A stretch of 64,000 nucleotides of DNA from Deferrisomatales bacterium (GCA_033551855.1 JAWSUI010000005.1:60380-124379); one strand, 5' to 3'; positions 1-16,286 are shown, counted from the stretch's first letter. The notes: a model not told the origin generated them from the sequence alone. Translations and numbers: made by a program.

Positions 1-907
1 ATCGGGGGAAGGTGCCCCTCTCCCAGATGAAGAAGAAGACCAGCACGAACACCTTGAGGAGGAACCACACGACCTTCGGGACGAAGGGCACCTCGATGCC
101 GAAGGGCAGGTGCCACCCGCCCAGGAAGAGGCAGGTGATCAGTGCGGCCAGCGAGATCGCGTGGGCATACTCGGCCATGAAGAACATGGCGAACTTCATG
201 CTCGAGTACTCGATGTTGAAGCCGCAGGCGAGCTCGCTCTCGGCTTCCGGCATGTCGAAGGGCGTGCGGTTGATCTCGGCCAGCCCGCAGATCAGGTACA
301 GGACGAAGGGAACCCAGAGGATGGGGTTGAAGATGTTCCACATGTGGCTCTGGCCGTCCACGATCTGCACCAGGGAGAGGCTGCCGCTGACCATGATGAC
401 GCTGATCAGCGTGAATCCCAGGGCGAGCTCGTAACTGACCATCTGGGCCGCCGCCCGCAGGGAGCCCATCAGGCCGTACCGGTTGTTCGAGCCCCACCCC
501 CCCAGGACGACGCCGAACTCGCCGAGGCTCGCCAACCCGAGAATGAAGATCAGCGCCACGTTGATGTCCGCCACCCTCATCGTGATTTCCCGCCCGAAGA
601 GGGTGATCGACTCCCCGAAGGGGATCACCGAGACGATCAGGATGGCCGGGATGATGGAGAGGGCCGGCGCCAGGATGTACGCCACCCGGTCCGCGTTCGC
701 CGGGACGATGTCCTCCTTGAAGAACCCCTTGATGCCGTCGGCGATGGGCTGGAGCAGGCCGAAGGGGCCCACGCGGTTGGGCCCGCGGCGCACCTGGATG
801 CGGCCCAGCACCCGGCGCTCCAGCCAGGTGGTGTAGGCCACCATCAGCATGAGAACGCCGAAGACCACCACCACCTTGATCACGCTCTCGATCAGGAAGG
901 CAACCAT
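1..907 (-). CDS. nuoH: NADH-quinone oxidoreductase subunit H (3' end truncated by window edge)
   Basis: Manual translation from ATG at 907 (RBS GAGGAG): MVAFLIESVIKVVVVFGVLMLMVAYTTWLERRVLGRIQVRRGPNRVGPFGLLQPIADGIK, the ND1/NuoH signature; absent from the ORF track because its stop lies outside the window. Confidence 0.95.
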   Translation of the reverse strand, partial: MVAFLIESVIKVVVVFGVLMLMVAYTTWLERRVLGRIQVRRGPNRVGPFGLLQPIADGIKGFFKEDIVPANADRVAYILAPALSIIPAILIVSVIPFGESITLFGREITMRVADINVALIFILGLASLGEFGVVLGGWGSNNRYGLMGSLRAAAQMVSYELALGFTLISVIMVSGSLSLVQIVDGQSHMWNIFNPILWVPFVLYLICGLAEINRTPFDMPEAESELACGFNIEYSSMKFAMFFMAEYAHAISLAALITCLFLGGWHLPFGIEVPFVPKVVWFLLKVFVLVFFFIWERGTFPR

Positions 908-929
908 GGGCTCCTCGCTTTGCTCGGCC

Positions 930-957
930 GCGACGCGTGACGGGTGACGCGTGACGC
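930..957. repeat. Degenerate heptamer tandem repeat (GTGACGC x4) in the fdh-nuoH gap
   Basis: gcgacgc gtgacgg gtgacgc gtgacgc; a second 7-mer run (ttgaccc ttcactc ttcaacg ttcacac) lies at 1014-1041. Confidence 0.7.
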
Positions 958-1035
958 GCTACCCCCTAGCCGCTGCCCGTCGCGCGTTGCTGTCGGCCGA
1001 CGGCGTTTGGCCGTTGACCCTTCACTCTTCAACGT

Positions 1036-3708
1036 TCACACCTTCTCCACCCGCACCGCGCAGACCTTGTACTCGGGGATCTTGGCCGTGGGGCAGACCA
1101 CCGGGTTGGTCAGCACGTTCACCGGGGACTCGCTGTAGTGGAAGCTCAGGAACACGGTGCCGGGCGCGGTGCGGTCCACCACCTGTACCTTGGTCCGGAT
1201 CTCGCCCCGGCGGGAGGACACCTGGACGGTGTCGCCGGTCCGGAGTCCCAGCTTCTCCGCGTCGGCCGGGTGCACCTCCATGAAGCCCTCGGGAAAGCAG
1301 TCGTTGATGCGCCCGCACCGCCGGGTCATGGTGCCCGAGTGGTAGTGGGCGTGCTCCCGGCCGGTGGTGAGCAGGAGCGGGTACTCGGCGTCCGCCTTCT
1401 CGTCCGCCCCGCGGAACGCGACCGGCGTGAAGAGCCCCTGGCCCCGGGTGAACTTGCCCACGTGGAGGATCGGCGTGCCCGGGTGATCCTTGCTCGGGCA
1501 GGGCCACTGGAGCCCCTCGCGCTCGAGCCGGGCGTAGTCCATGCCGGCGTAGCTGGGCGTCAGGCGGGCGATCTCGTCGAAGACCTCCGAGGGCCCTTCG
1601 TAGCTCATCTTGAGGCCCATGCGGCCGGCCAGGTCCTGAAAGATCTCCCAGTCCGGCCGGGACTCGCCCCGGGGCGCCACGGCCGCCCGCACCCGCTGGA
1701 CTCTGCGCTCGGTGTTGGCGAAGGTGCCGTCCTTCTCGGCGAAGGAGCTGGCCGGGAGCACCACGTGGGCCTTGGCGGCGGTCTCGGTGAGGAAGATGTC
1801 CTGGACCACCAGGAGCTCGAGCTTCTCGAGCGCCTCTCCGACGTGGCTCAAGTCCGGGTCGGTGATCATGGGGTTCTCGCCCATGACGTAGAGGGCCTTG
1901 ACCGTACCGTCCAGCGCGCCGTGGGTGGCCTCGGTCACGGTGAGCCCGGGCTTGCGGGGGACCTTGCGGCCCCAGGCCTCTTCGAACTTGGCCGCGGCCG
2001 CGTCGTCGTCCACCCGCTGGTACCCGGTGAGGACGTTGGGGAGGCCCCCCATGTCGCAGGCGCCCTGCACGTTGTTCTGGCCCCGCAAGGGGTTCAGCCC
2101 CCCGCCCTCCACGCCGACGTTGCCGCACAGCATCGCGAGGTTGGCCAGGGCCTTGACGGCATCGGTGCCCTGGGAGTGCTGGGTGACGCCCATGCAGTAG
2201 AGGATCGATGCCGGCTTCGCGGCGGCGTAGAGGCGCGCGGCCTCCCGGAGGGACTCCGCGGGCACCCCGATGATCAGCTCCACCTTCTCCGGCGTGAAGT
2301 CGGCCAAGGACGCGGCGAGTTCCTCGAAGCCCTCGCACCGCTCGGCCACGTAGGCCGCGTCGTGGAGCCCCTCCGCGAGGATCACGTGCATCATCGCGTT
2401 GAGGACGGGGATGTTGTGGCCGGGTTCGATCTGCAGGAAGACGTTCGCGTAGTCCGTGAGCGGGATCCGGCGGGGATCGACCACGACCAGCTTGGCCCCC
2501 TTCCGGGTGATGGCTCGTTTGAGCACATCGCCGATGATCGGATGGTTCTCGGTGGTGTTGGAGCCGATGACCAGGAACGCCGCGGCCTTCTCGAAGTCGG
2601 CGATGGAGTTGGTCATCGCGCCGGAGCCGAAGCTGGTGGCCAGACCGGCCACGGTGGCGCTGTGTCAGAGTCGTGCGCAGTGATCGACGTTGTTGGTGCC
2701 GATCACCGCGCGGAAGAACTTCTGGAAGAGGTAGTTGTCCTCGTTCGTGCACCGGGCGCTCGCGAACCCTGCGACCGCGTCGGGGCCGCTCTCGTCCTTG
2801 ATCTGCTGGAGCTTCGACGCGACAAAACCGAGGGCCTCGTCCCAGGTGGCCTCCGCGAGCTGGCCGTTCTTCCGCACCAGGGGCACGGTGAGCCGGTCGG
2901 GGTGGTTGACGAACTCCCAGCCGAACCGGCCCTTCACGCACAGGCTCCCCCGGTTCGGGACCGCGTCGAAGTCGGTGGTGGTGACCCGCAGGACCTGGTC
3001 GTTCTTCGCGTTGAGCTCGAGCTGACACCCGACGCCGCAGTACCCGCACGTGGTGCGGACGCGGCTGGCCTGCCAGGTGCGTGCCTTGCGGGGCATCACC
3101 GAGTCGGTCAGCGCCCCCACCGGGCAGACCGAGAGGCACTCGCCGCAGGAGATGCACTCCACCCCCGGCACCGGGCCGATGTAGGAGTGGAACCCGTTGT
3201 CGACGATCTGGATGCACCCGATGCCCTTGATCTCCTTGCAGGCGTGGACGCACCGGGCGCACAGCACGCATCGGTCGGGCCACTGCTGGATGAATGGGGA
3301 GACGTACCGGGGCACGGGGCGCTCGAAGGTCTCGGCCGCAAAGTCCTGCTTCGTGACGCCGAATTCCCAGGTCAGGTCCTGGAGGTCGCACTCGCCCCCC
3401 TTGTCGCAGACCGGGCAGTCCAGGGGGTGGCGCACGAGGAGGAGCTTGAGGACGTCGCGCCGCATCTCCCGGAGCTCCTCCGACTCGGTGCGCACGACGA
3501 GGCCCTCTCCGGCCGGGGTGTCGCAGGCGGTGATGGGCTTCCGATACCCCTCCACCTCCACCACGCACATGCGGCAGGACCCGATGGGGGCGAGCTTCTT
3601 GAGCCAGCACAGGGTCGGGATCCGAATCCCCACCGACTGGGCGGCCTCGAGAATCGTCGTCCCCTTGGGGACGCTCACCGCTTTGCCGTCGATCGTCAGG
3701 CTGATCAT
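1036..3708 (-). CDS. fdhF: Selenocysteine-containing formate dehydrogenase alpha subunit (FdhF/SfrA/NuoG-like, Mo/W-bisPGD); UGA at 2665-2667 recoded
   Basis: ORFs 2665..3744 and 1036..2652 are in the same frame and join as [29 protein letters not shown]. N-terminal [2Fe-2S], HxxxCxxC and 2x[4Fe-4S] motifs, CGYCGVGC...LCVKG, LRGQNNVQG, C-terminal molybdopterin dinucleotide-binding domain (PEYKVCAV). ATG 3708 has RBS GAGGGG. Confidence 0.92.
2636..2652 (-). promoter_or_regulatory. Bacterial SECIS-like hairpin
   Basis: mRNA UGA CAC AGC GCC ACC GUGGCC-GGUCU-GGCCAC: perfect 6-bp stem with GGUCU loop 12 nt after the UGA, same position and loop core as the E. coli fdhF SECIS. Confidence 0.85.
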
Positions 3709-3812
3709 GCAGAACCCCTCGCGGAGATGCAGGCTGTCGGCCATGGACTGTTTGCCCTCAGCCCTTCCCGTGTCACGTATGACCCAACGCTTGGCATACT
3801 CGCTGTGAACTT

Positions 3813-3848
3813 CCTATAGGACCTATAGGTCCCATAGGTCCTATAGGA
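3813..3848. repeat. Four tandem 9-bp units built on the palindrome CCTATAGG
   Basis: cctatagga cctataggt cccataggt cctatagga in the gap between the flavoprotein gene and the FDH gene. Confidence 0.85.
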
Positions 3849-3875
3849 CCCCCAAGGGGAAAGCTCCGTCATCCC

Positions 3876-5834
3876 TCACGCCCCCGTCGCCACTGCCAGC
3901 AGCCGGTAACACCGCAGGCACCGGCTGGCGTCGGCGATGGCCTCCTCGTGGGTGAACCCGATCTCGGCCTCCCGGAAGTCCGTCACCCGCTCCTCGACCG
4001 GCGCGTGGTGGATGTGGGCGGGCTCGGTGGTCGGGGGCACCCCCACGTCTTCCTTGGGGTCGTAGGGCTTGAGCTTCTCCACGTACTGGTTCATGACCCA
4101 CTCCTCCAGGGCCTCGGTGCGCCCCTCCCGGAGGAACCGGTCGATCTGGAAGGCCGCTTCCTTGCCCCCGGCCAGTCCGGCAATCAGGGTGAGGGGGCCG
4201 GAGACGCAGTCGCCGGCGGAAAAGACCCCCACTCCGTTGTGGACCGCGGCGAGTTTGTTGAGCCCCTCGACCTGGATCTGCTTCCACTTGTCCGCCTTCA
4301 CCGGCCCGTCCGCGAACAGGAAGGAGAGGTCGATGGCCTGGCCGATGGCGGGGATGACCGCATCCACCGGGATCACGAGCTCGCTCCCCTTGACCTCTAC
4401 GGGCCGCCGCCGTCCCGAGGCGTCGGGCTCCCCGAGTTCCATCCGGACGAGCTCCACCCCCGTGACCTTCCCCTTCTCGTCCAGCACCAGCCGGGTGGGG
4501 TTGTGCAGCACCAGGAACTCCACGTTCTCGGCCTTGGCGTCGGCGATCTCCACCTTGTCGGCGGGCATCTCCGCCTCGCTGCGCCGGTACACCAGCTTCA
4601 CGTTCTCGTAACCCAGGCGCAGGGCCGTGCGCACGCAGTCGATGGCCACGTTGCCGCCGCCCACCACGGCCACCGTCTTTCCCACGAACACCGGTGTCCC
4701 CAGGGCGACGTCCCGGAGGAAGTCGGCGCCCCGCATGAAGCCTTCCTTCGCTTCCCCCTCGCCGGGCACGCCCATGCCGGTGCCGAGGCGAGCCCCCACC
4801 CCCAGGAACACCGCCCGGTACTCCCCGCCCAGCAGGTCCGCAAAAGGCACGTCCGTGCCCACATCGGTGCCGTAGCGCATCGTCACCCCCATCTCCCCGA
4901 TCAGGTCCGCCTCTCGGCGGAGGATCGCGCGGGGGAGGCGGTAGTCCGGGATGCCCACGGCCGCCATGCCGCCGGGCTCCGGGAGGGCCTCGAACACCGT
5001 GCAGTCGTACCCCATCTGGGCCAGGTAGAAGGCGCAGGAGAGCCCCGCGGGCCCGGCGCCCACCACCGCCACCTTCTCCTTGTCGATGACCGGCTTGGGC
5101 AGCCGGGGGGGCCGCTTGCGCTCCAGCTCGTAATCCGCCACGAAGCGCTTGAGGAACTTGATCTGGACCGGCCCATCCACGTTCTGACGGCGGCAGTTGA
5201 ACTCGCAAGGCCGGACGCAGACCCTCCCCACCGTGCCCGGCAGGCAGTTGTCCTGGCGGATCACGTCCAGACTCTCCAGGAACTTCCCGTTCTTGACGTG
5301 CTCCACGTAGGTGGGGATGTCGAGGTGGGCCGGGCAGGCGCTCTTACACGGCGCCGTCACCTTGAGTCGGTAGGTGCCCCGGGGGATCTCCGACTCCCCC
5401 CCCGCCGCCGCATCGAGCTCGGCGCGGAAGTGGGTGACGAGGTCCAGGAACGCCTTCCCGCAGGACTGCCCCAGATCGCACAGCGCCTGCTCGCGGAGGC
5501 GGCCCGCCAGCCGCGCCACGGTCTCCACGTCGCCGGCCTGCCCCCGGCCCAGGCAGATGCGGTCGAGGCAGTCGTGGATGACCTTGCTCCCCACCCGGCA
5601 GGGGACGCACTGGCCGCAGGAGTTTCTCACCAGCCCCTCGGCGTAGGCCCGGCCCAGATCGACGGGGTTCACCCCGTCGTCCCACAGGGCGATCCCGTCC
5701 CATCCCATGATTCCGAGGACCGGGGTGCCGGAGGACAAGGACTTGGGCAGGGCTACGTCGTCGGGGCCCTGGGCCGTGGCCTGCCGGCTGTCGAGGAGCT
5801 TGCCGCCCCAGCTCGAAAAGATCCGATCGGACAT
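3876..5834 (-). CDS. SfrB/GltD-like FAD- and Fe-S-dependent NAD(P)H oxidoreductase with N-terminal NuoF-type 4Fe-4S motif
   Basis: Start MSDRIFSSWGG (RBS GAGGAG); SCGQCVPC...LC NuoF N3-type motif; PCKSACP...GRVCVRPCEFNCRR; VVGAGPAG (FAD); VVGGGNVAID and YRRS (NADPH-type site); C-terminal RCLRC. Confidence 0.88.
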   Translation of the reverse strand: MSDRIFSSWGGKLLDSRQATAQGPDDVALPKSLSSGTPVLGIMGWDGIALWDDGVNPVDLGRAYAEGLVRNSCGQCVPCRVGSKVIHDCLDRICLGRGQAGDVETVARLAGRLREQALCDLGQSCGKAFLDLVTHFRAELDAAAGGESEIPRGTYRLKVTAPCKSACPAHLDIPTYVEHVKNGKFLESLDVIRQDNCLPGTVGRVCVRPCEFNCRRQNVDGPVQIKFLKRFVADYELERKRPPRLPKPVIDKEKVAVVGAGPAGLSCAFYLAQMGYDCTVFEALPEPGGMAAVGIPDYRLPRAILRREADLIGEMGVTMRYGTDVGTDVPFADLLGGEYRAVFLGVGARLGTGMGVPGEGEAKEGFMRGADFLRDVALGTPVFVGKTVAVVGGGNVAIDCVRTALRLGYENVKLVYRRSEAEMPADKVEIADAKAENVEFLVLHNPTRLVLDEKGKVTGVELVRMELGEPDASGRRRPVEVKGSELVIPVDAVIPAIGQAIDLSFLFADGPVKADKWKQIQVEGLNKLAAVHNGVGVFSAGDCVSGPLTLIAGLAGGKEAAFQIDRFLREGRTEALEEWVMNQYVEKLKPYDPKEDVGVPPTTEPAHIHHAPVEERVTDFREAEIGFTHEEAIADASRCLRCYRLLAVATGA

Positions 5835-5851
5835 GGACGTCTCTCCTCGCT

Positions 5852-7030
5852 TCAGCGGTCGATCTCGCCGAGGACGATGTCGAGGGAACCGATCACCGCG
5901 ACGACGTCCGCGACCATCCGGCCCAGGATCATCGGCTCCAGGGCCTGGAGATTCACGAAGCAGGGAGGCCTGACCCGGAACCGCCAGGGCTTCTCCGTGC
6001 CGTCGGAGACCAGGTAGTAGCCCAGTTCCCCCTTGCTCGCCTCCACGCTCATGTACACGTCCCCGACCGGCGCCTTGTAGCCGTCGCTCATGAGCTTGAA
6101 GTGGCGGATGAGGGCCTCGATGTGCTCGTAGACGTCCTGCTTGGGGGGCGGGGTGAAGCGAGGGTCGTCGAGCATCACCGGACCCTCGGGCATCCGGTCC
6201 AGGGCCTGCTCGGCGATCCGCAGAGATTGGCGCATCTCCACCAGGCGCACCAGATAGCGCTCGTACACGTCGCCCACCGTCCCGGTGGGGATCTCGAAAT
6301 CGTAGGTCTCGTAGTCGCAATAGGGCTGGGCCTTGCGCAGGTCCCACTGGATACCGGCTGCGCGCAGCACGGGGCCGGTCAGGGCGAACTGGACGCATTC
6401 CTCGGCGCTGATGATCCCGATGCCCTCGGTGCGCCCTCTCCAGATCTTGTTCTGGGTCAGGAGGCGCTCGTACTCGTCGATCCGTGAGGGGAACTCCTGG
6501 ATGAAGGCCCGGGCCTTCTCGAAGAACACCGGCGGCACGTCCTCCGGCAAGCCCCCCACCCGGATGTAGCTCGGGGTGAGGCGCGCGCCGTGGACGTCCT
6601 CCAGGAGGTCCATGACCTTCTCGCGGTCCCGGAAGGTGTAGAACAGCACCGTCATGGCACCGATGTCGAGGGCATGGCTGGCCAGCCACAGCAGGTGGCT
6701 GGCGATCCGCTGGAGCTCGCACAGGCAGACCCGAAGGACCGTCGCCCGGGCCGGGATCTGATCCTCGATGCCCAGGAGCTTCTCCACGGCCAGGGTGTAC
6801 CCCAGGTTGTTGAGCAGGGCGCCCACGTAGTCCATCCGGTCCGTGAGCGTCAGGGCCTGGTGGTAGGTCTTGGTTTCCGCCAGCTTCTCGAGTCCGCGGT
6901 GCAGGTGGCCCAGGTGCGGCGTCACCCCCACGACGGTCTCGCCGTCGAGCTCCAGCACGAGCCGGAGCACCCCGTGGGTGGCCGGGTGCTGGGGGCCCAT
7001 ATTGACGACCATGTTCCGGGTCTCGCCCAT
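5852..7030 (-). CDS. nuoD: NADH-quinone oxidoreductase subunit D
   Basis: NMGPQHPATHGVLRL, GHLHRGLEK, DRMDY, C-terminal SLDIVLGEIDR; no NiFe CxxC pairs. Confidence 0.97.
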   Translation of the reverse strand: MGETRNMVVNMGPQHPATHGVLRLVLELDGETVVGVTPHLGHLHRGLEKLAETKTYHQALTLTDRMDYVGALLNNLGYTLAVEKLLGIEDQIPARATVLRVCLCELQRIASHLLWLASHALDIGAMTVLFYTFRDREKVMDLLEDVHGARLTPSYIRVGGLPEDVPPVFFEKARAFIQEFPSRIDEYERLLTQNKIWRGRTEGIGIISAEECVQFALTGPVLRAAGIQWDLRKAQPYCDYETYDFEIPTGTVGDVYERYLVRLVEMRQSLRIAEQALDRMPEGPVMLDDPRFTPPPKQDVYEHIEALIRHFKLMSDGYKAPVGDVYMSVEASKGELGYYLVSDGTEKPWRFRVRPPCFVNLQALEPMILGRMVADVVAVIGSLDIVLGEIDR

Positions 7031-7079
7031 GATGCCCTCCGTCCGGGTGCGCCCTGGCGGGACGCGGCCGGGTCAGCTC

Positions 7080-7559
7080 TCAGCGGTAGTGCACCTTCTG
7101 GGGAATGCCATGGAGCGGAAAATCCTTGCGCAGGGGGTGCCCCACGTACCCGTCCCACAGCAGGATGCGCCGCAGGTCCGAGTGCCCTTCGAACACGATG
7201 CCGAAGAGGTCGTACACCTCGCGCTCCAGCCAGTTGGCAGCCTTCCAGACCCCCTCCACCGTGCGGATCGTCGCATTCTGGGCCACGGCGGCCTTCAGGC
7301 GGAGCCGGCGGTTGTGGGGGAAGGAGTACAGGTTGTAGACGACCTCGAATCGCGGCTCGCCGGGCAGGCGGTCCACCGCGGTGAGGTCGGCGAGCATGTC
7401 GAACCGCAGCGCCTCATGGTCCCGGCAGCAGGCGCACACGTCCACGATGCGCTCCGGGTCCACCGCCACGCTGAGCTGGCCGCGGAAGGCGGTGTCGCCC
7501 AAGATGGCGTCGCCGCAGCTACCTTTCAGGATCTCGACGATCGGGGATTGGTCGCTCAT
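7080..7559 (-). CDS. nuoC: NADH-quinone oxidoreductase subunit C
   Basis: ANWLEREVYDLFGIVFEGHSDLRRILL...GHPLRKDFP. Confidence 0.97.
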   Translation of the reverse strand: MSDQSPIVEILKGSCGDAILGDTAFRGQLSVAVDPERIVDVCACCRDHEALRFDMLADLTAVDRLPGEPRFEVVYNLYSFPHNRRLRLKAAVAQNATIRTVEGVWKAANWLEREVYDLFGIVFEGHSDLRRILLWDGYVGHPLRKDFPLHGIPQKVHYR

Positions 7560-7573
7560 TTCGGCCTCACGCT

Positions 7574-7601
7574 GGTTGCGTGTTGCGTGTTGCGTGTTGG
7601 G
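7574..7601. repeat. Heptamer tandem repeat (TGTTGCG x4) in the nuoB-nuoC gap
   Basis: ggttgcg tgttgcg tgttgcg tgttggg. Confidence 0.8.
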
Positions 7602-7652
7602 CGCCGGAAAAGCTTTCTCCCACGCGCAACGTACCGCCCGCCGCGAGCAGCT

Positions 7653-8153
7653 CTACGCGATCAGCCGCCCCTCGGTGTCCGGACGGTCCGAGAACTTCTC
7701 GCTGCCGATCTTGTCCTGGAGCTTGATGATCGCGGCCAGGAGCTGCTCGGGGCGGGGAGGACAGCCGGGCACGTACACGTCCACCGGCAGGAACTGGTCC
7801 ACGCCCTGGACGGTGTTGTACGTGTTGAAGATGCCGCCGGAGCACGCACACGACCCGTAGGCGATCACCCACTTGGGCTCCGGCATCTGGCGATAGATGC
7901 GCTCCACCATGCCCGCCATCTTCTTGGTCACGGTACCGGCCACGATCATCAGGTCCGACTGCCGGGGAGAGGGGCGGAAGACCTCGGCCCCGAACCGGGC
8001 GATGTCGTAGTTGGAGGCCGACGCCGCCATCATCTCCAGCGCACAGCAGGCCAGGCCGAAGGTCGCGGGCCAGATGGAGTTCTTCCGCGCCCAGCCCACC
8101 ACCTTCTCGAGCCGCGTGACCAGGACGGGGGGCAGCTTGCTCTCTACTCCCAT
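7653..8153 (-). CDS. nuoB: NADH-quinone oxidoreductase subunit B
   Basis: [49 protein letters not shown]; start overlaps the nuoA end. Confidence 0.97.
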
Positions 8154-8500
8154 TGCAGGACTCCTTTCCTCCAGGTGTAGGCGAATCCCACCACGAGGAC
8201 GAAGAGGAAGACCATCATGCCCACGAACGCCTCGGGCCCCAGATGACGGAAGCGGACGGCCCAGGGGTAGAGGAAGGCCACCTCCAGATCGAAGACCAGG
8301 AACTCCATGGCGACGAGGTAGTACTTGATGTCGAAGGCCCGGCGCCCGCCCGGCTCCACGACCATCCCGCACTCGTAGGTGGCGAGCTTGTCGGCGTTGG
8401 GGCGCCGGGGGCCGAGGAAGGTGGAGATCAGAACCACACCCAGGCCGAACGCCGTGGCCAGGAGGAACAGGATGAGGATCGGCACGTAGTTCTGAAGCAT
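8144..8500 (-). CDS. nuoA: NADH-quinone oxidoreductase subunit A
   Basis: [35 protein letters not shown]. Confidence 0.97.
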
Positions 8501-8573
8501 GCGGGCCTCCTCGGACCGGGCTCAGGGAGAGCGAGGCTGTACGCAAGTGAAGATCCGGAACAAACTCGCGCGT

Positions 8574-8603
8574 ATGCTACTTTGCAGCATTTTCACCTGT
8601 CAA
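8574..8603 (-). promoter_or_regulatory. Sigma70-type promoter of the nuo operon with overlapping inverted repeat
   Basis: Minus strand TTGACA-N18-TAGCAT; imperfect palindrome atgctac-ttt-gcagcat (8574-8590) overlaps the -10 box. Confidence 0.6.
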
Positions 8604-8688
8604 GGCGGAAACACCGGCGCTTTTGCGAGAAACGTTCTAAAGTGAAGACGCGCCGCCCCAGGCGCCGGAGGGCCCTCGACAGCCCCCC

Positions 8689-9126
8689 TCACCGCGCCGC
8701 CCGTGGACCCGTTCCATCGTCCGGCCCGTCCCCCAACAGTCTCCGGACGAGCGGCCGGTCGGCCGCGGGCATCGGGCGGGAGAGCAGGCCGGCGGGCTCG
8801 ACCCAGGCCAGCTCCTGCCCCTGGAGCGGCTCCGGGGTGCCCGAGACCAGGGTGCACGCGTAGGCCGTGAGGCGGATCGCCACGTGGGGGTAGACGTGGT
8901 CGACGCTTCCCACCTCGCCCCCCACGGCCACCACGACCCCAAGCTCCTCCCGGAGCTCTCGGGCAACCGCCTCCCGGGAGGATTCCCCCGCCTCCACCTT
9001 TCCCCCGGGGAGTTCCCACAGCCCTCCGTGGGGCCCGCCGGGCGGCCGCCGGGCCAGCAGCACCCTTCCCCGGCCGTCGCGAAGCACCGCAGCGACCACG
9101 GGGAGGAACACGGGTCCTTCTTCCAT
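8689..9126 (-). CDS. NUDIX hydrolase, MutT/NudG-like (d)NTP pyrophosphohydrolase
   Basis: WELPGGKVEAGESSREAVARELREELG Nudix box. Confidence 0.9.
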   Translation of the reverse strand: MEEGPVFLPVVAAVLRDGRGRVLLARRPPGGPHGGLWELPGGKVEAGESSREAVARELREELGVVVAVGGEVGSVDHVYPHVAIRLTAYACTLVSGTPEPLQGQELAWVEPAGLLSRPMPAADRPLVRRLLGDGPDDGTGPRAAR

Positions 9127-9246
9127 GTCGGACGGGCCTTCGCCTCGACCGTGCCCTGCTCGAACCGGTCTCGGTATCGGTATCGCAGTCGGCGTCGATC
9201 CCGATCCGGGTCCAGATTTCGATGGGCGGTGAGGCGCGGCGGGCCC

Positions 9247-11193
9247 TCAGGTCTTGAGGTCCTCCAGGTCCTGGAAGTGGCTCAGGGCCTGGGGGTTGGC
9301 CAGGGCGTCCTTGTTCTTGACCTCCTCGCCCTGCACCGTCTTGAGCACCGCCATCTCGACCAGCTTCCCGCTGATGGTCCGCGGGATCTCGGGCACCTGG
9401 ATGATCTTGGCGGGCACGTGCCGGGGGGTGGTGTTCTGGCGGATGTGGTCGCGAATCCTCTTCTTCAGGGCCTCGTCGAGCGTCACCCCTGGCCGGAGCA
9501 CGAGGAACAGCACCACCCGAACGTCGTCCTCCCAAGGCTGGCCGATGACCAGGGCCTCCACCACCTCCTCCAGGGCTTCCACCTGGCGGTAGATTTCGGC
9601 GGTGCCGATCCGCACCCCGCCGGGGTTGAGGGTGGCGTCGGAGCGGCCGTACACGATCACGCCGCCGTTCTCGGTGATCTCGATGTAGTCCCCGTGGCGC
9701 CACACCCCGGGGTAGTGTCGGAAGTACGCGTCGAGGTACTTCTCGTCGCCCGGGTCGTTCCAGAAGCTCACCGGCATGGACGGGAAGGGGGCGGTGCACA
9801 CGAGCTCGCCCTTCCGGCCCACGACGGGTTTCCCGTCGTCGTCCCAGGCCTCCACCTTCATCCCCAAGCCCCGCTTCTGGATCTCACCCGCGTACACCGG
9901 GCTGATGGGCGACCCCAGGATGAAGCAGGAGATGATGTCGGTGCCCCCGGAGATCGAGGCGAGTTGGAGGTCCTGCTTCACCTCCCGGTACACCCACTCG
10001 AAACTCTCGACGGAGAGCGGCGAGCCGGTGGAGCAGACGGCCTTCACGGGCGAGAGGTCGAAACGGGCACCGGGGTGCACCTCGCTCTTCTCGCACATCG
10101 CGAGATACTTCGCGCTCGTGCCGAAGATCGTGACCTTCAGGTCCTGGGCCATCTTCCACAGCACGGACATGTCCGGGTAGCCGGGGCTGCCGTCGAAGAG
10201 GACGACGGTGGAGCCCACGTAGAGGGAGCTCACGAGCCAGTTCCACATCATCCACCCGCAGGTGGTGAAGTAGAAGATCGTGTCCTCCCGCTTGAGGTCG
10301 CAGTGGAGCATGAGCTCCTTCGCGTGTTGGATCAGGGTTCCCCCCGCCCCGTGCACGATGCACTTCGGGACCCCGGTGGTTCCCGAGGAGTACATGATGT
10401 AGATCGGATGGTCGAAGGGCAGTTGGGCGAACTCCACCTCCCGCGCGTCGTTGCCCAGGGCCTCGGCCCAGAGAAGCGCCTTCGGTACGGAGGAGAGGTC
10501 CGGCTGGGCCGTCACGAAGGGCACCACCACGATCTTCTCGATGGACCGGATCTCCCGGGCCACCTCCGCAACCCGGGCCAGGGAGTCGAAGGACTTGCCG
10601 TTGTAGAAGTACCCGTCCGCGGTGAGGAGCACCTTCGGCTCGATCTGGCCGAACCGGTCCATCACCCCCTTGAACCCGAAGTCCGGGCTGCAGGAGGACC
10701 AGATCGCCCCCAGGCTCGTGGCCGCCAACATCCCCACCACCGTCTCGATCCGGTTGGGCATGAAGCCGGCCACCCGATCCCCCTGGCCGACCCCGGCGCG
10801 CCGGAGGAAGCGGGCAAACCGGGCCACCTGGAGATAGAGCTCCTTGTAGGACACGCGCTCCGGGATCCCCTGCTCGCCCACGAAGACCAGGGCAGTGCGC
10901 TCGTCCCGATGTCGGAGCAGGTTCTCCGCGAAGTTCAGGCGGGCCCCCCGGAACCACCGGGCCCCCGGCATGACCGGGTTCTCCAGCACCGCCTCGTAGG
11001 GGGTGGAGGACCGGATGTCGGCAAACTTCCACATCGCCTCCCAGAAGGCCGGGATCTCCCGGACCGACCACTCGTACAGGTCGTCGTACCCCTGGAGCGA
11101 GAGGCCGTGGTCCCGGTTCACGTCGGCGAGGAACCGGGTCAGATTGGCCTGGGCCACCTTGTCCGCGGACGGGGTCCAAAGGAGCTTGCTCAT
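9247..11193 (-). CDS. Acetoacetate-CoA ligase
   Basis: YIMYSSGTTGVPKCIVHG, TTCGWMMWNWL, SISGGTDIISCF, GRSDATLNPGGVRIGTAE, PRTISGK. Confidence 0.93.
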   Translation of the reverse strand: MSKLLWTPSADKVAQANLTRFLADVNRDHGLSLQGYDDLYEWSVREIPAFWEAMWKFADIRSSTPYEAVLENPVMPGARWFRGARLNFAENLLRHRDERTALVFVGEQGIPERVSYKELYLQVARFARFLRRAGVGQGDRVAGFMPNRIETVVGMLAATSLGAIWSSCSPDFGFKGVMDRFGQIEPKVLLTADGYFYNGKSFDSLARVAEVAREIRSIEKIVVVPFVTAQPDLSSVPKALLWAEALGNDAREVEFAQLPFDHPIYIMYSSGTTGVPKCIVHGAGGTLIQHAKELMLHCDLKREDTIFYFTTCGWMMWNWLVSSLYVGSTVVLFDGSPGYPDMSVLWKMAQDLKVTIFGTSAKYLAMCEKSEVHPGARFDLSPVKAVCSTGSPLSVESFEWVYREVKQDLQLASISGGTDIISCFILGSPISPVYAGEIQKRGLGMKVEAWDDDGKPVVGRKGELVCTAPFPSMPVSFWNDPGDEKYLDAYFRHYPGVWRHGDYIEITENGGVIVYGRSDATLNPGGVRIGTAEIYRQVEALEEVVEALVIGQPWEDDVRVVLFLVLRPGVTLDEALKKRIRDHIRQNTTPRHVPAKIIQVPEIPRTISGKLVEMAVLKTVQGEEVKNKDALANPQALSHFQDLEDLKT

Positions 11194-12121: not shown

Positions 12122-12540
12122 CCTGTGCGCAATTCCAATAGTGGCCTTGCGCCTACAGGGGAACAGAATCAATCCCGGATGGCCGGGGAGCATGGCAACG
12201 GCGCAGCAAACCCAAGAGAGGCCCGCCTGAAGCCTGGAGGGGACGTCATCGCAGATTGCGCAGAACCATCCAGTTTACGCCTCCGAACCACACGCCCCGA
12301 CTCTCCCCGCCTCCCTGTACCTCGACCTCCGTAGGTCTGCCCCAGGACTTCTGAGGAGCCGAGAGGCTCCCTGCCTCCCCCGCACGGGATCGTTCCGTCC
12401 CGGTGCGGCCTGTGCGCGGCATCTCCCCTGGACACGGCGCTTACCGTCTTCCCCCGGCGCGTTCGGCACCGCTCGGGCGTTGCAGCCGGCCTTCTTCTTC
12501 CCCCTGTGAACCCCGACGAACACCAAAGAGGAGAGCAACC

Positions 12541-13716
12541 ATGGGCATGACCGACTTTCTCTTCACCTCCGAGAGCGTCACCGAGGGACACCCCGACAAG
12601 GTGGCCGACCAGATCTCCGACGCCGTGCTCGACACCCTGCTGGCCCAGGACCCAGCGAGCCGCGTGGCCTGCGAGACCATGGTGACCACGGGGATGGCCA
12701 TCATCGCCGGGGAGATCACCACCCAAGGGTACGCGCACATGCCCGACGTGGTACGTCAGACGATCCGGGACATCGGCTACACCGACCCGGCGCTGGGCTT
12801 CGACTGGGAGACCTGCGCGGTGCTGACCTCCATCGACCGGCAGAGCCCGGACATCGCCCTGGGCGTCGACGAGTCTGAAGGACACGAGCAGGGGGCAGGC
12901 GACCAGGGCCTGATGTTCGGTTACGCCACGAACGAGACGCCGGAGCTCATGCCCATGCCCATCGTGTACGCCCACAAGCTCACGCGCCGGCTCGCCGAGG
13001 TCCGCAAGCAGAAGCTCGTGGACTGCCTCCGGCCCGACGGCAAGAGCCAGGTGACGATCCGCTACGTGGACGGCAGGCCCGTGAGCGTGGACGCGGTGGT
13101 GGTGAGCACCCAGCACTCCCCCGACGTCACCCAGCAGACGGTGAGGGAGGCGGTGATCGAGACCGTGATCAAGCCCGTCATCCCCGAATCCCTGCTCACC
13201 GAACAGACCCGGTTCTACATCAACCCCACCGGCCGTTTCGTGGTAGGGGGCCCCATGGGCGACTGCGGCCTCACGGGCCGAAAGATCATTGTCGACACCT
13301 ACGGGGGGCAGGGAAGCCACGGCGGGGGAGCCTTCTCGGGCAAGGACCCGTCGAAGGTGGACCGGTCCGCCTCCTACCTGTGCCGGTACGTGGCCAAGAA
13401 CATCGTCGCCGGCGGGCTGGCAGACCGGTGCGAGGTCCAGTTGGCTTACGCCATCGGCGTGGCCGACCCCGTCTCGGTGATGATCGACACCGGCGGCACC
13501 TGGAAGATCGAACCCGACCGCATCGCCTCACTCGTCCGGGAGATCTTCCCGCTCAAGCCCAGGGAGATCATCCGGCACCTCGACCTCCTGCGCCCCATTT
13601 ACCGCAAGACCGCCGCCAACGGCCACTTCGGCCACGACGACCCCGACTTCACGTGGGAGCGAACGGACAAGGCGGAGGAGCTCGCCCGGGCAGCCGGGCT
13701 AGACGCCGCCGCATAG
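12541..13716 (+). CDS. metK: S-adenosylmethionine synthetase
   Basis: [37 protein letters not shown]. Confidence 0.98.
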
Positions 13717-13791
13717 CCCCCAGCCGAGCCCCCTCCTCGGGGGGCCCCCGGTGACGAAACCGGCGCGCTTTCCACCCCACACGGAGGAACC

Positions 13792-14724
13792 ATGTCCGCG
13801 TTGATCTGCGGATCGGTCGCCTACGACACGATCATGGTGTTCGAGGACCGCTTTCGGAACCACATCCTGGCCGACCAGGTGCACATCCTCAACGTCGCCT
13901 TCCACGTCCCGACCCTGCGGCGCGAATTCGGGGGGTGCGCCGGCAACGTCGCCTACAACCTCGTCCAACTCGGGATGGACGCGCACCCCCTGGCCACCGT
14001 GGGGGACGACTTCGCCCCCTACGCGGCCTGGATGGACCGCTGCGGGATCCGGCGCGACCTGGTGCGCACAGTGCCCGGTACCTTCACGGCCCAGGCGTTC
14101 ATCACCACCGATCTGGACGACAACCAGATCACCGCGTTCCACCCGGGGGCCATGGACCACGCCCACGTGCAGCCGATCCCCACCGGGGGGGCCTTCCGGG
14201 TCGCCATGGTCTCCCCGGACGGGAGGCGCGGGATGATCGAGCACGCGGAGCAGCTGGCCGAGGCCTCGATCCCCTTCGTGTTCGACCCCGGCCAGGGCCT
14301 GCCCCTGTTCTCGGGGGAGGAGCTGCGGCGCTTCGTCGATCTGGCGAGCTGGGTCGCCCTGAACGACTACGAGTCCCGGCTCCTGGCTGAGCGCACCGGC
14401 CTGGGGCCGGCGCAGATGGCCGAGCGCGTCGAGGCCGTGGTCGTAACTCGCGGGGCCGAGGGGTCCCGGATCTGGGCACAGGGTACGATCCACGAGATCC
14501 CGGCGGCCCCGGCGAGGACGGTGGCGGACCCTACCGGCTGCGGCGACGCCTACCGGGCCGGCATCCTCTACGGGATCCTAGAGGGGCTGGACTGGCCCAC
14601 CGCCGGCAGGATCGCCGCGCTCCTGGGAGCGGCCAAGGTCGCCTCCCACGGCACCCAGAACCACGCCTTCGATGTCGGGACCCTGGCTGAGCGTTTCTTC
14701 GAGGCGTTCGGATACCGCATCTGA
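13792..14724 (+). CDS. PfkB-family carbohydrate kinase, probably adenosine kinase
   Basis: [36 protein letters not shown]; sits between metK and ahcY. Confidence 0.85.
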
Positions 14725-14774
14725 CCTCACTAGAAGACACCTCGGGCCTCCCCGGGGAGAAGAGGAGAGACGAC

Positions 14775-16286
14775 ATGACCGCACTTCCCGCCCTTTCGCT
14801 GACCAACGAGCGACCGGCCTTCCGGGTTGCCGACCTGAGCGAGGCCACCGTGCGCTTCGGACGCAAGGAGATCGAGCTGGCCGAGCACGAGATGCCGGGG
14901 CTGATGGCCCTGCGTGCGGAGTACGCCGGCGAGAGGCCCCTGGCGGGGGCACGCATCATGGGCTCCCTGCACATGACCATCCAGACCGCCGTGCTCATCG
15001 AGACCCTGGTGGAGCTCGGTGCCGACGTGCGCTGGGTGAGCTGCAACATCTTCTCCACCCAGGACCACGCGGCGGCGGCCACCGTGGTCGGCCCGGGCGG
15101 CAATGCGGATCACCCCTCGGGAGTTCCGGTGTTCGCGTGGAAGGGCGAGACTCTGGCCGAGTACTGGTGGTGCACCCTGCAGGCGCTGATCTGGCCGGAC
15201 GGCTCGGGGCCGAACCTCCTTCTGGACGACGGCGGCGACGCCACCTTGCTCGCCCACCTGGGAGCCGAGTGCGAGGAGAAGGGAGTCATTCCGGACCCCG
15301 CCACGGCCGAGAGCGAGGAGTTCTCGATCATTCTCGCGCTGCTCCACCGGGTGCGCGAAGAGCAGGGAGCGGACTTCTGGCGGCCGCTTGCGGCGGCGAT
15401 CCGGGGGGTCTCGGAGGAGACCACCACGGGGGTGCACCGGCTCTACGAGCGGATGGAGAACGGCACGCTCCGGTTTCCCGCGATCAACGTCAACGACTCG
15501 GTGACCAAGAGCAAGTTCGACAACATCTACGGTTGCCGCCACTCCCTGGTGGACGGGCTCATGCGTGCCACGGACGTCATGCTCGCGGGCAAGCGGGCGC
15601 TGGTGTGCGGTTACGGCGACGTGGGCAAGGGCTGTGTGGAAAGCCTTCGGGGCCAGCAGGCCCGGGTCGCGGTGAGCGAGATCGACCCGATCTGCGCCCT
15701 GCAGGCATGCATGCACGGGCTCGACGTGATCACGGTGGAGGACGCCCTCCCCGATTTCGACGTCTACGTGACCGCCACGGGCAACAAGGCGATCATCCGC
15801 GCCGAGCACATGGCGCGCATGAAGCACAACGCGGTCGTGTGCAACATCGGGCACTTCGACAACGAGATCGACATGGCGGGGCTGGAGCGGATGCGCCGTT
15901 CCGGCGAAGTGGAGAAGATCGAGATCAAGCCTCAGGTGCACGAGTGGCGGTTCACGAAGAGCTCCCACGGGCCGGGGGGAGGCGCCCATTCCATCCTGCT
16001 CCTGGCCGAGGGGCGGCTGGTGAACCTGGGCTGCGCCACCGGGCACCCGAGTTTCGTCATGTCGGCCTCCTTCACGAACCAGGTGATGGCGCAGATCGAG
16101 CTGCACCGGAACGCCGAGAGGTACGGGAAGAGCGTCACCGTGCTCCCCAAACAGCTCGACGAGAAAGTGGCACGGCTCCACCTGGGCCGGTTCGGCGCCA
16201 GGCTCACCCGGTTGACCTCGGATCAGGCTGCCTACATCGGGGTGCACCCGGAGGGCCCCTACAAGACCGACCACTACCGGTATTGA
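14775..16286 (+). CDS. ahcY: S-adenosylhomocysteine hydrolase
   Basis: [33 protein letters not shown]-terminal [10 protein letters not shown]. Confidence 0.98.

Follow-up and report, generated by a model that had tools for sequence, protein, structure and literature searches.

The stretch of DNA analysed here (the window), 64,000 nucleotides from a Deferrisomatales bacterium (GCA_033551855.1, JAWSUI010000005.1:60380–124379), begins with an operon for respiratory complex I in which a flavoprotein of the SfrB/FdhB type and a formate dehydrogenase (FDH) with selenocysteine (Sec) in its active site take the place of the usual input subunits. To judge by gene content and conservation, the operon is confirmed as a real, conserved and mechanistically coherent variant of complex I that is common in its phylum. 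We put at about 60% the probability that the encoded complex is a three-port proton pump, which would pass electrons from formate and from NADPH to menaquinone.

All genes of the operon lie on the minus strand in the order nuoABCD–flavoprotein–Sec-FDH–nuoHIJKLMN, as traced from six-frame open reading frames and family models; a sequence-only reading of the window had claimed this order from nuoA to nuoH, with a GltD/SfrB-like and an FdhF-like gene in its midst. Counted along the whole window, nuoA occupies positions 8144–8500 (NuoA models matched below their cut-offs, E 2e-37), nuoB, for the N2 cluster subunit, 7653–8153 (TIGR01957 and PRK06411 over cut-off), nuoC 7080–7559 (TIGR01961 over cut-off), nuoD 5852–7030 (TIGR01962 over cut-off), the flavoprotein gene 3876–5834, the FDH gene 1036–3744, and nuoH 1–907, continuing beyond the window edge (NCBIfam over cut-off). 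The genes nuoI, J, K, L, M and N, which that reading had left to be sought in the adjacent sequence, are present directly after nuoH on contig C5 (C5:53905–60244) of the source genome (G000; 132 contigs, completeness 100%, 70% GC). NuoB, C, D, H, I, K, L, M and N pass the NCBIfam curated cut-offs, and NuoJ, outside the family scan, was assigned by reading frame and synteny. NCBI labels such as Deferrisomatales on homologues of the flavoprotein place the genome within or close to that order of Desulfobacterota.

By family models and alignments the quinone (Q) module is complete (NuoB, C, D and I, with quinone-site residues), as is the membrane (P) module (NuoA, H, J, K, L, M and N). NuoD matches E. 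coli NuoCD at 45% in alignment, with the GPQHPATHG and DRMDY motifs in place, and its quinone-site residues His15, His19, Tyr68 and Asp122 are invariant in 49 of 49 sequences. NiFe cysteine motifs are absent from NuoD, and the NiFe-hydrogenase large subunit (PF00374) has no match in the genome; the proposal that NuoD keeps its quinone site and has no NiFe cysteines thus stands, and identity with formate hydrogenlyase (FHL) is ruled out. NCBIfam and Pfam scans found no nuoE, nuoF or nuoG within the operon. The earlier statement that nuoE and canonical nuoF are missing from it is right in that respect and needs amending in another, as the N3 domain of NuoF survives, solely, within the flavoprotein. 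With no NuoE, no NuoF, no cofactor-free subunit of the NuoG type and no NiFe subunit, the complex would be neither a standard complex I nor an FHL, as had been proposed.

In the place of NuoE and NuoF is the flavoprotein (652 residues, recognised from domain scans and conserved motifs), which in Pfam order consists of the NuoF N3 domain, a GltD-type dicluster domain and FAD/NAD(P) Rossmann folds. The N3-cluster (NADH_4Fe-4S) domain spans residues 62–142 (5409–5651, minus strand; PF10589, E 4.5e-20), and the N-terminus aligns with residues 330–421 of E. coli NuoF at 33%, with all four N3 cysteines aligned; in NuoF, this portion passes electrons on to NuoG. All 55 in-operon copies share, without variation, the N3 ligands C73/76/79/119, the ligands of two GltD-type [4Fe–4S] sites (C163/167/206/210/214/639/642) and the motifs GxGxxG, GxGxxA and YRR. 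For T. maritima NfnB, 10.1101/717884 identifies Tyr-Arg-Arg as the motif for the NADP phosphate. Judged by these domains and motifs, the flavoprotein is a NuoF substitute in which the NuoG-facing piece is kept and the FMN/NADH domain is swapped for an FAD/NADP(H) one. The second NAD(P)H port claimed earlier is thereby supported and refined, the port being of the NADP(H) type by motif, with a probable preference for NADPH.

The nuoG slot holds two in-frame open reading frames on the minus strand parted by a single TGA, which give 902 residues with TGA read as Sec; the probable start, an ATG at 3708 behind a GAGGGG ribosome site, shortens the product to 890. It scores 875 bits against the Fdh-alpha model TIGR01591 (cut-off 666) and 440 bits against the NuoG model TIGR01973 (cut-off 470), and is the only full-length match in the genome to an E. 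coli NuoG query; NuoG exceeds its family cut-off in just one of the 26 genomes with an intact in-operon FDH. Residues K44, U140, H141 and R333 of E. coli FdhF align to K271, U360, H361 and R554, and the best solved relative is FdsA (PDB 6tg9, E 4e-246). Together with a Mo/W-bisPGD domain, the protein has ligands for clusters N1b, N5, N4, a bridging [4Fe–4S] cluster and an N7-type cluster, in agreement with the claim that a NuoG-like Fe–S N-terminus is joined here to a full FDH active site. Four extra cysteines, C169, C197, C200 and C203, have no counterpart when aligned with E. coli NuoG, a protein that has no bridging cluster and keeps N7 off the electron path. By analogy with FdsA they would bridge N7 to N4, through a cluster discussed in 10.1101/717884. 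A NuoG-type N5 motif, HPLDCPVCDKGGECDLQD, lies at 3376–3429 (minus strand). In the 26 intact in-operon copies, sorted as such by K/U/H/R, catalytic residues are invariant wherever covered, and C356, M518, G555, N557 and N624, which lay outside the sorting, are invariant as well. Loading with Mo or W is probable.

The TGA (2665–2667, minus strand) encodes Sec360, as placed by alignment to E. coli U140. A pseudogene stop was considered and ruled out: the TGA matches E. coli U140 in position, 47 related genes preserve it, and Cys takes its place in a few. A hairpin resembling the selenocysteine insertion sequence (SECIS), GTGGCC-GGTCT-GGCCAC, lies 15 bases past the TGA (2636–2652, minus strand), with its loop in register with the E. 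coli fdhF element. At the loop, 36 of 47 Sec genes use GGT, a codon that makes up 19% of their Gly codons overall and 3 of the 77 Gly codons in this FDH gene. Against shuffled sequences the fold is not significant: a 26-nt piece forms it (z −1.6), and for a 48-nt piece an alternative fold beats it (z −0.4). Of the Sec-decoding and maturation genes sought, the genome contains selA, selB, tRNA-Sec and FdhD, as well as MobA-like and TupA-like genes, both below cut-off. There are two tRNA-Sec predictions (C4:73340–73437 and C8:65254–65343), and selA adjoins the mobA-like gene on C38.

The arrangement recurs widely in the phylum. A flavoprotein search with a threshold of E ≤ 1e-140 gave matches in 129 of the 401 phylum genomes, and 121 loci were compared, namely the regions around 120 matches and the present locus, with most of the 1,050-residue fused forms omitted; another contig scan gave only 6 loci. 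The order nuoD–flavoprotein–FDH–nuoH, which a synteny survey had been suggested to seek, is conserved at 55 of the 121 loci, in many families; 21 of these are Sec-intact (the present one included), 2 are Cys-intact and 32 are degenerate. Intact copies are spread over 8 families and make up 14 of the 15 readable ones in the bacterium's own order. The one-contig genome G010 is among those with an intact operon. At 4 of the 121 loci the pair follows nuoN (Sec-intact immediately past nuoN in L103, L108 and L115 of family f50, SfrA-like and dead in L120 of family f30), and 6 are cut after nuoD–flavoprotein.

That the pair belongs to the complex is suggested by its inheritance, its motifs and a structural model. 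Trees of the FDH N-domain and of NuoD (56 loci) share 22 of 24 strong splits, with none strongly conflicting, and the flavoprotein tree (56 loci) is likewise without strong conflict with either; since kin share genes, such agreement is a sign of co-inheritance, not of binding. The NuoG-type N5 motif occurs in 54 of 54 in-operon N-domains; among free FDHs, it is present in 3 of the 10 intact and 14 of the 20 dead proteins. Among free-standing pairs, NuoD is over cut-off in 23 of 23 genomes with the NuoG-type or a near motif and in 4 of 8 without, an association that is suggestive, although confounded by kinship. Modelling with Nuo partners, as had been proposed, was run for the FDH N-domain with NuoD, NuoC and NuoI and scored 0.62, the best of three controls scoring 0.00; the pass mark is one that 116 of 157 solved complexes attain, as against 2 of 215 mismatched pairs. 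Across runs at least 96% of contacts agree, partner pLDDT is at least 81, and the N5 motif region is predicted to rest on NuoD 288–316 and NuoI 54–104. Contact of FDH with NuoD and NuoI is therefore a prediction of the model, and contact of the flavoprotein with FDH is presumed.

These results bear on the alternative that the pair is a soluble NADP-dependent FDH of the Moorella type, merely co-located with an 11-subunit, ferredoxin-fed complex I and not docked on it. The M. thermoacetica enzyme, an NADP-dependent W/Se protein described as α2β2 (PMC5736913, PMC12827605), has the same parts (PMC5736913): a cytoplasmic Sec α-subunit, a β-subunit with Fe–S and NADP domains, and a link to the Wood–Ljungdahl methyl branch. 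The JGI label on homologues of the flavoprotein is ‘formate dehydrogenase (NADP+) beta subunit’, the pair is also found apart from nuo genes, and headless complex I is common (PMC11238625), one such operon being present in this genome. A dead soluble FDH would be useless, however, yet 32 of 55 loci retain one in the nuoG slot with its wire intact, and the E–F–G position, the co-inheritance with NuoD, the NuoG-type motif and the passing model also speak against this alternative, which we regard as quite improbable. The Moorella enzyme, likened here by description only, is not described as a complex I part; for the present pair, synteny and model favour docking.

The formate site has not been kept everywhere. 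In the 32 degenerate copies the metal-site residues are lost, whereas 19 of 20 cluster-ligand positions are invariant (C169 is Asp in 7); that such copies stay in the slot with their ligands kept fits a structural or wire role. As far as can be read from sequence, the conserved core is the flavoprotein and the Fe–S wire, and formate is an optional port at phylum level, since the site is lost at 32 of 55 loci, and an intact one here. Changes between live and dead states number at least 8 on the N-domain tree and 5 on the NuoD tree. In the N-domain tree three dead copies (L032, L081 and L144) are nested inside intact clades. L032 shows U→C and R554→A and has lost the GGT loop codon. Early active-site loss is also visible in L081 (G211; U→C and H→L), L144 (G221; U→S) and L049 (G370; U→T), in subunits otherwise well conserved; G370 shows neither another FDH nor acetyl-CoA synthase (ACS). 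The whole-length FDH tree was set aside for the order of events in favour of the N-domain tree, because in the former the dead sequences form long branches that are pulled towards the NuoG root. Neither tree can say whether canonical NuoG descends from this lineage, and no such descent is claimed.

Another FDH is present in 30 of 32 genomes with a dead copy, and 21 of 25 intact copies are the sole TIGR01591-type FDH (periplasmic FDHs not counted; L025, with a partial NuoD, dropped). Both close contrasts, G005 against its order and G211 against G122, agree with this pattern, which is strong in the raw counts but was rejected as a statistical result, as no more than 3 independent pairs lie on strong branches and the sign test gives a p of about 0.5. 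The idea that the live or dead state tracks the Wood–Ljungdahl pathway was ruled out, since ACS was found in 32 of the 34 live genomes and in 30 of the 34 dead-or-absent ones. In family f15, four loci (L054, L055, L067 and L080) combine a dead nuoG-slot subunit with an intact Sec-FDH, devoid of the N-domain, just upstream of nuoA.

Repeated loss speaks for another reading, in which the complex assembles but is an NADPH:menaquinone pump only, with formate electrons going to NADP+ (or with poor metal loading) and formate not driving pumping by itself. The flavoprotein is the part that does not vary, the formate site was lost repeatedly (8 changes on the N-domain tree, 5 on the NuoD tree), and Geobacter SfrAB, a dead-site relative, acts in NADP regeneration (PMC13186404, PMC9888536). 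To this reading we give only a small chance: bridging and N7-type ligands connect the metal site with N4, from where electrons would find a much better sink in menaquinone (−74 mV) than in NADP+, 14 of the 15 readable copies in the order are intact, and a rare GGT codon is conserved at the SECIS loop.

In the three-port pump that we favour, a 13-subunit complex I would have an NADP-type formate dehydrogenase pair as its N-module. The Sec-FDH would replace NuoG and dock by its N5 motif on NuoD and NuoI, and the flavoprotein would replace NuoF and dock by its N3 domain at the N1b end of FDH. Formate, oxidised at the W/Mo–Sec site, would send electrons through the N7-type and bridging clusters to N4 and on through N5, N6a/b and N2 to menaquinone; NADPH would reduce FAD, the two GltD-type clusters, N3 and N1b, and join the shared exit at N4. 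As both ports share N4, formate:NADP+ exchange would also be possible. Menaquinone reduction would drive proton pumping by NuoH–N. By established potentials, electron transfer from formate to menaquinone yields about 0.7 eV per pair and from NADPH 0.5–0.6 eV, enough or borderline for four protons. Active site, maturation genes, Q and P modules, the lack of any other NuoG in the genome, synteny, co-inheritance and model all support the formate:quinone proton pump with an NAD(P)H port proposed in the sequence-only reading; co-transcription, pumping and direction are presumed.

The genome gives this pump a plausible setting. Among its six molybdopterin enzymes, the FDH in the nuo operon is the only recognisable FDH, so that the formate step of the Wood–Ljungdahl pathway depends on a nuo-operon gene; CODH/ACS, AcsC/D/E and FHS lie in one cluster, and a FolD-like gene is present. 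The genome also has NarGH, a benzoyl-CoA reductase subunit and menaquinone genes of the futalosine type; neither a NiFe hydrogenase nor DsrA was found in it. The likely respiratory role would be the capture of formate and NADPH from an oxidative Wood–Ljungdahl methyl branch, on the assumption that FolD releases NADPH in this organism.

The same complex could instead run mainly in reverse, with menaquinol and proton motive force reducing NADP+ and CO2, either to supply the Wood–Ljungdahl pathway with NADPH and formate or to dispose of quinol electrons as formate. This sole FDH occurs in a genome with CODH/ACS and FHS, and of the 68 genomes with the nuo-linked module, 62 have ACS. Reduction of CO2 by menaquinol costs about 0.7 eV per electron pair by standard potentials, near the supply from four protons. 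The authors of 10.1101/717884 suggest operation in reverse for the Sulfurimonas complex and cite such a suggestion for that of anammox bacteria. We consider mainly reverse flow unlikely: with no NiFe hydrogenase found in G000, there is no clear call for it in H2-based autotrophy, NarGH and benzoyl-CoA reductase point to a heterotroph that respires, and CO2 reduction by menaquinol sits at the thermodynamic limit. To a fuller version of the three-port pump we would give even odds: a true complex I containing the sole FDH, with ports for formate/CO2, NADPH/NADP+ and menaquinone, would pump when running oxidatively and act in reverse as a quinol CO2 reductase driven by proton motive force, and the sites in Desulfobacterota would have been shut off several times once a second FDH was available, in parallel with the FDH-to-NuoG conversion long inferred for complex I.

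Several observations weigh against the three-port pump. Because the N5 regular expression was built on the in-operon sequences, its 54 of 54 is circular, and a free NuoEF-type Sec-FDH (L173) has a matching N5 pattern. NuoC makes no confident contact in the model, and the docking pass may reflect likeness to solved complex I. At 50 of the 121 loci (some on short contigs) the flavoprotein has no adjacent nuo gene, at 5 FDH lies just upstream of nuoA, and at 1 the operon has the flavoprotein and no FDH gene; the pair is thus not obligately in the operon. Five loci of family f15 (L038, L070, L083, L098 and L100) have a full-length intact FDH upstream of nuoA and no FDH in the slot, and L084 (G102) reads nuoD–flavoprotein–nuoH, with an FDH about 120 kb off on the same contig. 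Within the operon, a strong 17-bp hairpin of 9-nt repeats (3812–3848, minus strand; z −3.9, no U-tract) stands in the gap between the flavoprotein and FDH genes. Elsewhere in the genome are two citrate synthase genes, so that acetyl-CoA need not be oxidised via the Wood–Ljungdahl pathway, and a second, headless complex-I-like operon (L164, C30:14394–26528), with nuoD directly followed by nuoH and no nuoE, F or G. NuoE/NuoF-type modules, located outside nuo operons in answer to the suggested check for nuoE/F elsewhere, lie at C16:15331–24000 (L163) and C26:19095–22543 (L162); together with the C30 complex I they could supply or use parts. The C30 operon carries four antiporter-like subunits. 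Each of the C16 and C26 modules has a short NuoG-N-like subunit and no catalytic partner, and the C16 module sits between HdrA/MvhD-like genes and the genome's only fdhD.

Compared with canonical complex I (E. coli K-12 as reference), the 11 Q/P genes are in standard order, quinone-site residues and ligands for N3, N1b, N4, N5 and an N7-type cluster are shared, and the inserted genes stand at the E–F–G position; unlike it, the complex here has no NuoE and no FMN/NADH domain of NuoF, and its nuoG-slot protein has a bridging cluster and the full FDH catalytic set. A metagenome scan with the N-domain alignment, biased by its pattern, gave at least 80 loci, mostly ordinary nuoE–F–G operons among the matches listed, none of which had this flavoprotein. 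Some of them (L168, L169, L172, L174–L178 and similar) read nuoA–C–D–E–F–G–H–J–K–L–M, with no nuoB or nuoI match in place, and their NuoG retains the bridging-cluster cysteines.

SfrAB, an NADPH oxidoreductase of Geobacter sulfurreducens, is likened to the pair by domain content, with a GltD-like SfrB and a NuoG/FDH-like SfrA, which has no FDH active site. SfrA-type proteins lack Sec, His and Arg and lie outside nuo operons (in L120 just after nuoN), whereas the FDH here is intact and inside one. Free-standing pairs with a dead site, mostly with the same N5 motif, occur in several families among the loci examined. A formate port beside a nicotinamide port has also been proposed for anammox bacteria, reportedly by de Almeida et al. 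in 2016. That complex I, as cited (ref. 50 in 10.1101/717884), would make NADH and formate, and so differs in using NADH instead of NADPH and in running in reverse. In Sulfurimonas denitrificans, a non-canonical complex I put forward as a genomic hypothesis (McNichol and Sievert, bioRxiv 10.1101/717884) has an NfnB/GltD-like protein bearing the Tyr-Arg-Arg NADP motif in place of NuoF, and an extra NuoG cluster proposed to connect N7. The idea is therefore partly anticipated in print, by the Sulfurimonas NuoF substitute and the anammox proposal. E. coli FHL (PMC9474812) likewise wires a molybdo-FDH to a complex-I-like membrane arm, but is described as ending in a NiFe hydrogenase that makes H2, where the present operon has a quinone-site NuoD and a full NuoL/M/N arm. 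Of the soluble enzymes StnABC/NfnABC and FdsABG (PDB 8oh5, 9bov, 9n5u, 6tg9; PMC7483475), Stn shares the GltD module and the NuoG-like wire, and FdsA shares the NuoG-like N-domain fused to an active FDH; these enzymes require NuoE/NuoF-type partners, and the N5 motif of FdsA differs (HPLDCLTCAANGDC). Full-text literature searches, whose coverage leaves out most subscription journals, turned up neither a description of the operon in Desulfobacterota nor one of an intact Sec-FDH occupying the nuoG slot. Within the same coverage, passages of PMC4453560, PMC4758237, PMC12827605, PMC10052568, PMC13490349, PMC2825233, PMC3543383, PMC9324843 and PMC2628731 hold no description of the operon.

Further features surround these genes. 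A sigma-70-like promoter, TTGACA-18-TAGCAT, is a consensus match only and lies upstream of nuoA (8574–8603, minus strand), as the single site in a scan of 800–9300, where shuffled sequences average 0.4; terminator-like sites in the operon region were at chance level in terminator scans. The unit of the hairpin described above (GGACCTATA / GGTCCTATA) is a dispersed genomic 9-nt repeat, whose intergenic arrays fold as long hairpins. Its 8-mer core, CCTATAGG, has 23 copies in this 70% GC genome, many within similar arrays, and further 9-nt arrays lie at C2:127086, C3:96558, C26:23665 and 29369, C29:40829, C36:17188 and C47:6715. Other short tandem units precede nuoC and nuoH. The upstream neighbours are a Nudix hydrolase (8689–9126) and an acetoacetate-CoA ligase (9247–11193), followed at 12403–16286 by metK, a sugar-kinase-like gene and ahcY, these three judged by eye.

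If the three-port pump is real, complex I would gain a substrate port not known from any purified enzyme, and the formate step of acetyl-CoA oxidation in anaerobes would gain a direct coupling site. It would also show what feeds many of the apparently ‘headless’ nuo operons in Desulfobacterota; surveys that require nuoE, F and G would miss such operons. As a membrane enzyme possibly able to use quinol and proton motive force for CO2 reduction, it would also be of biotechnological interest. Finally, the old idea that NuoG is a former molybdo-enzyme would become testable, because live and dead versions of one subunit exist in close relatives (G000 and G005, 75% identical; G122 and G211).

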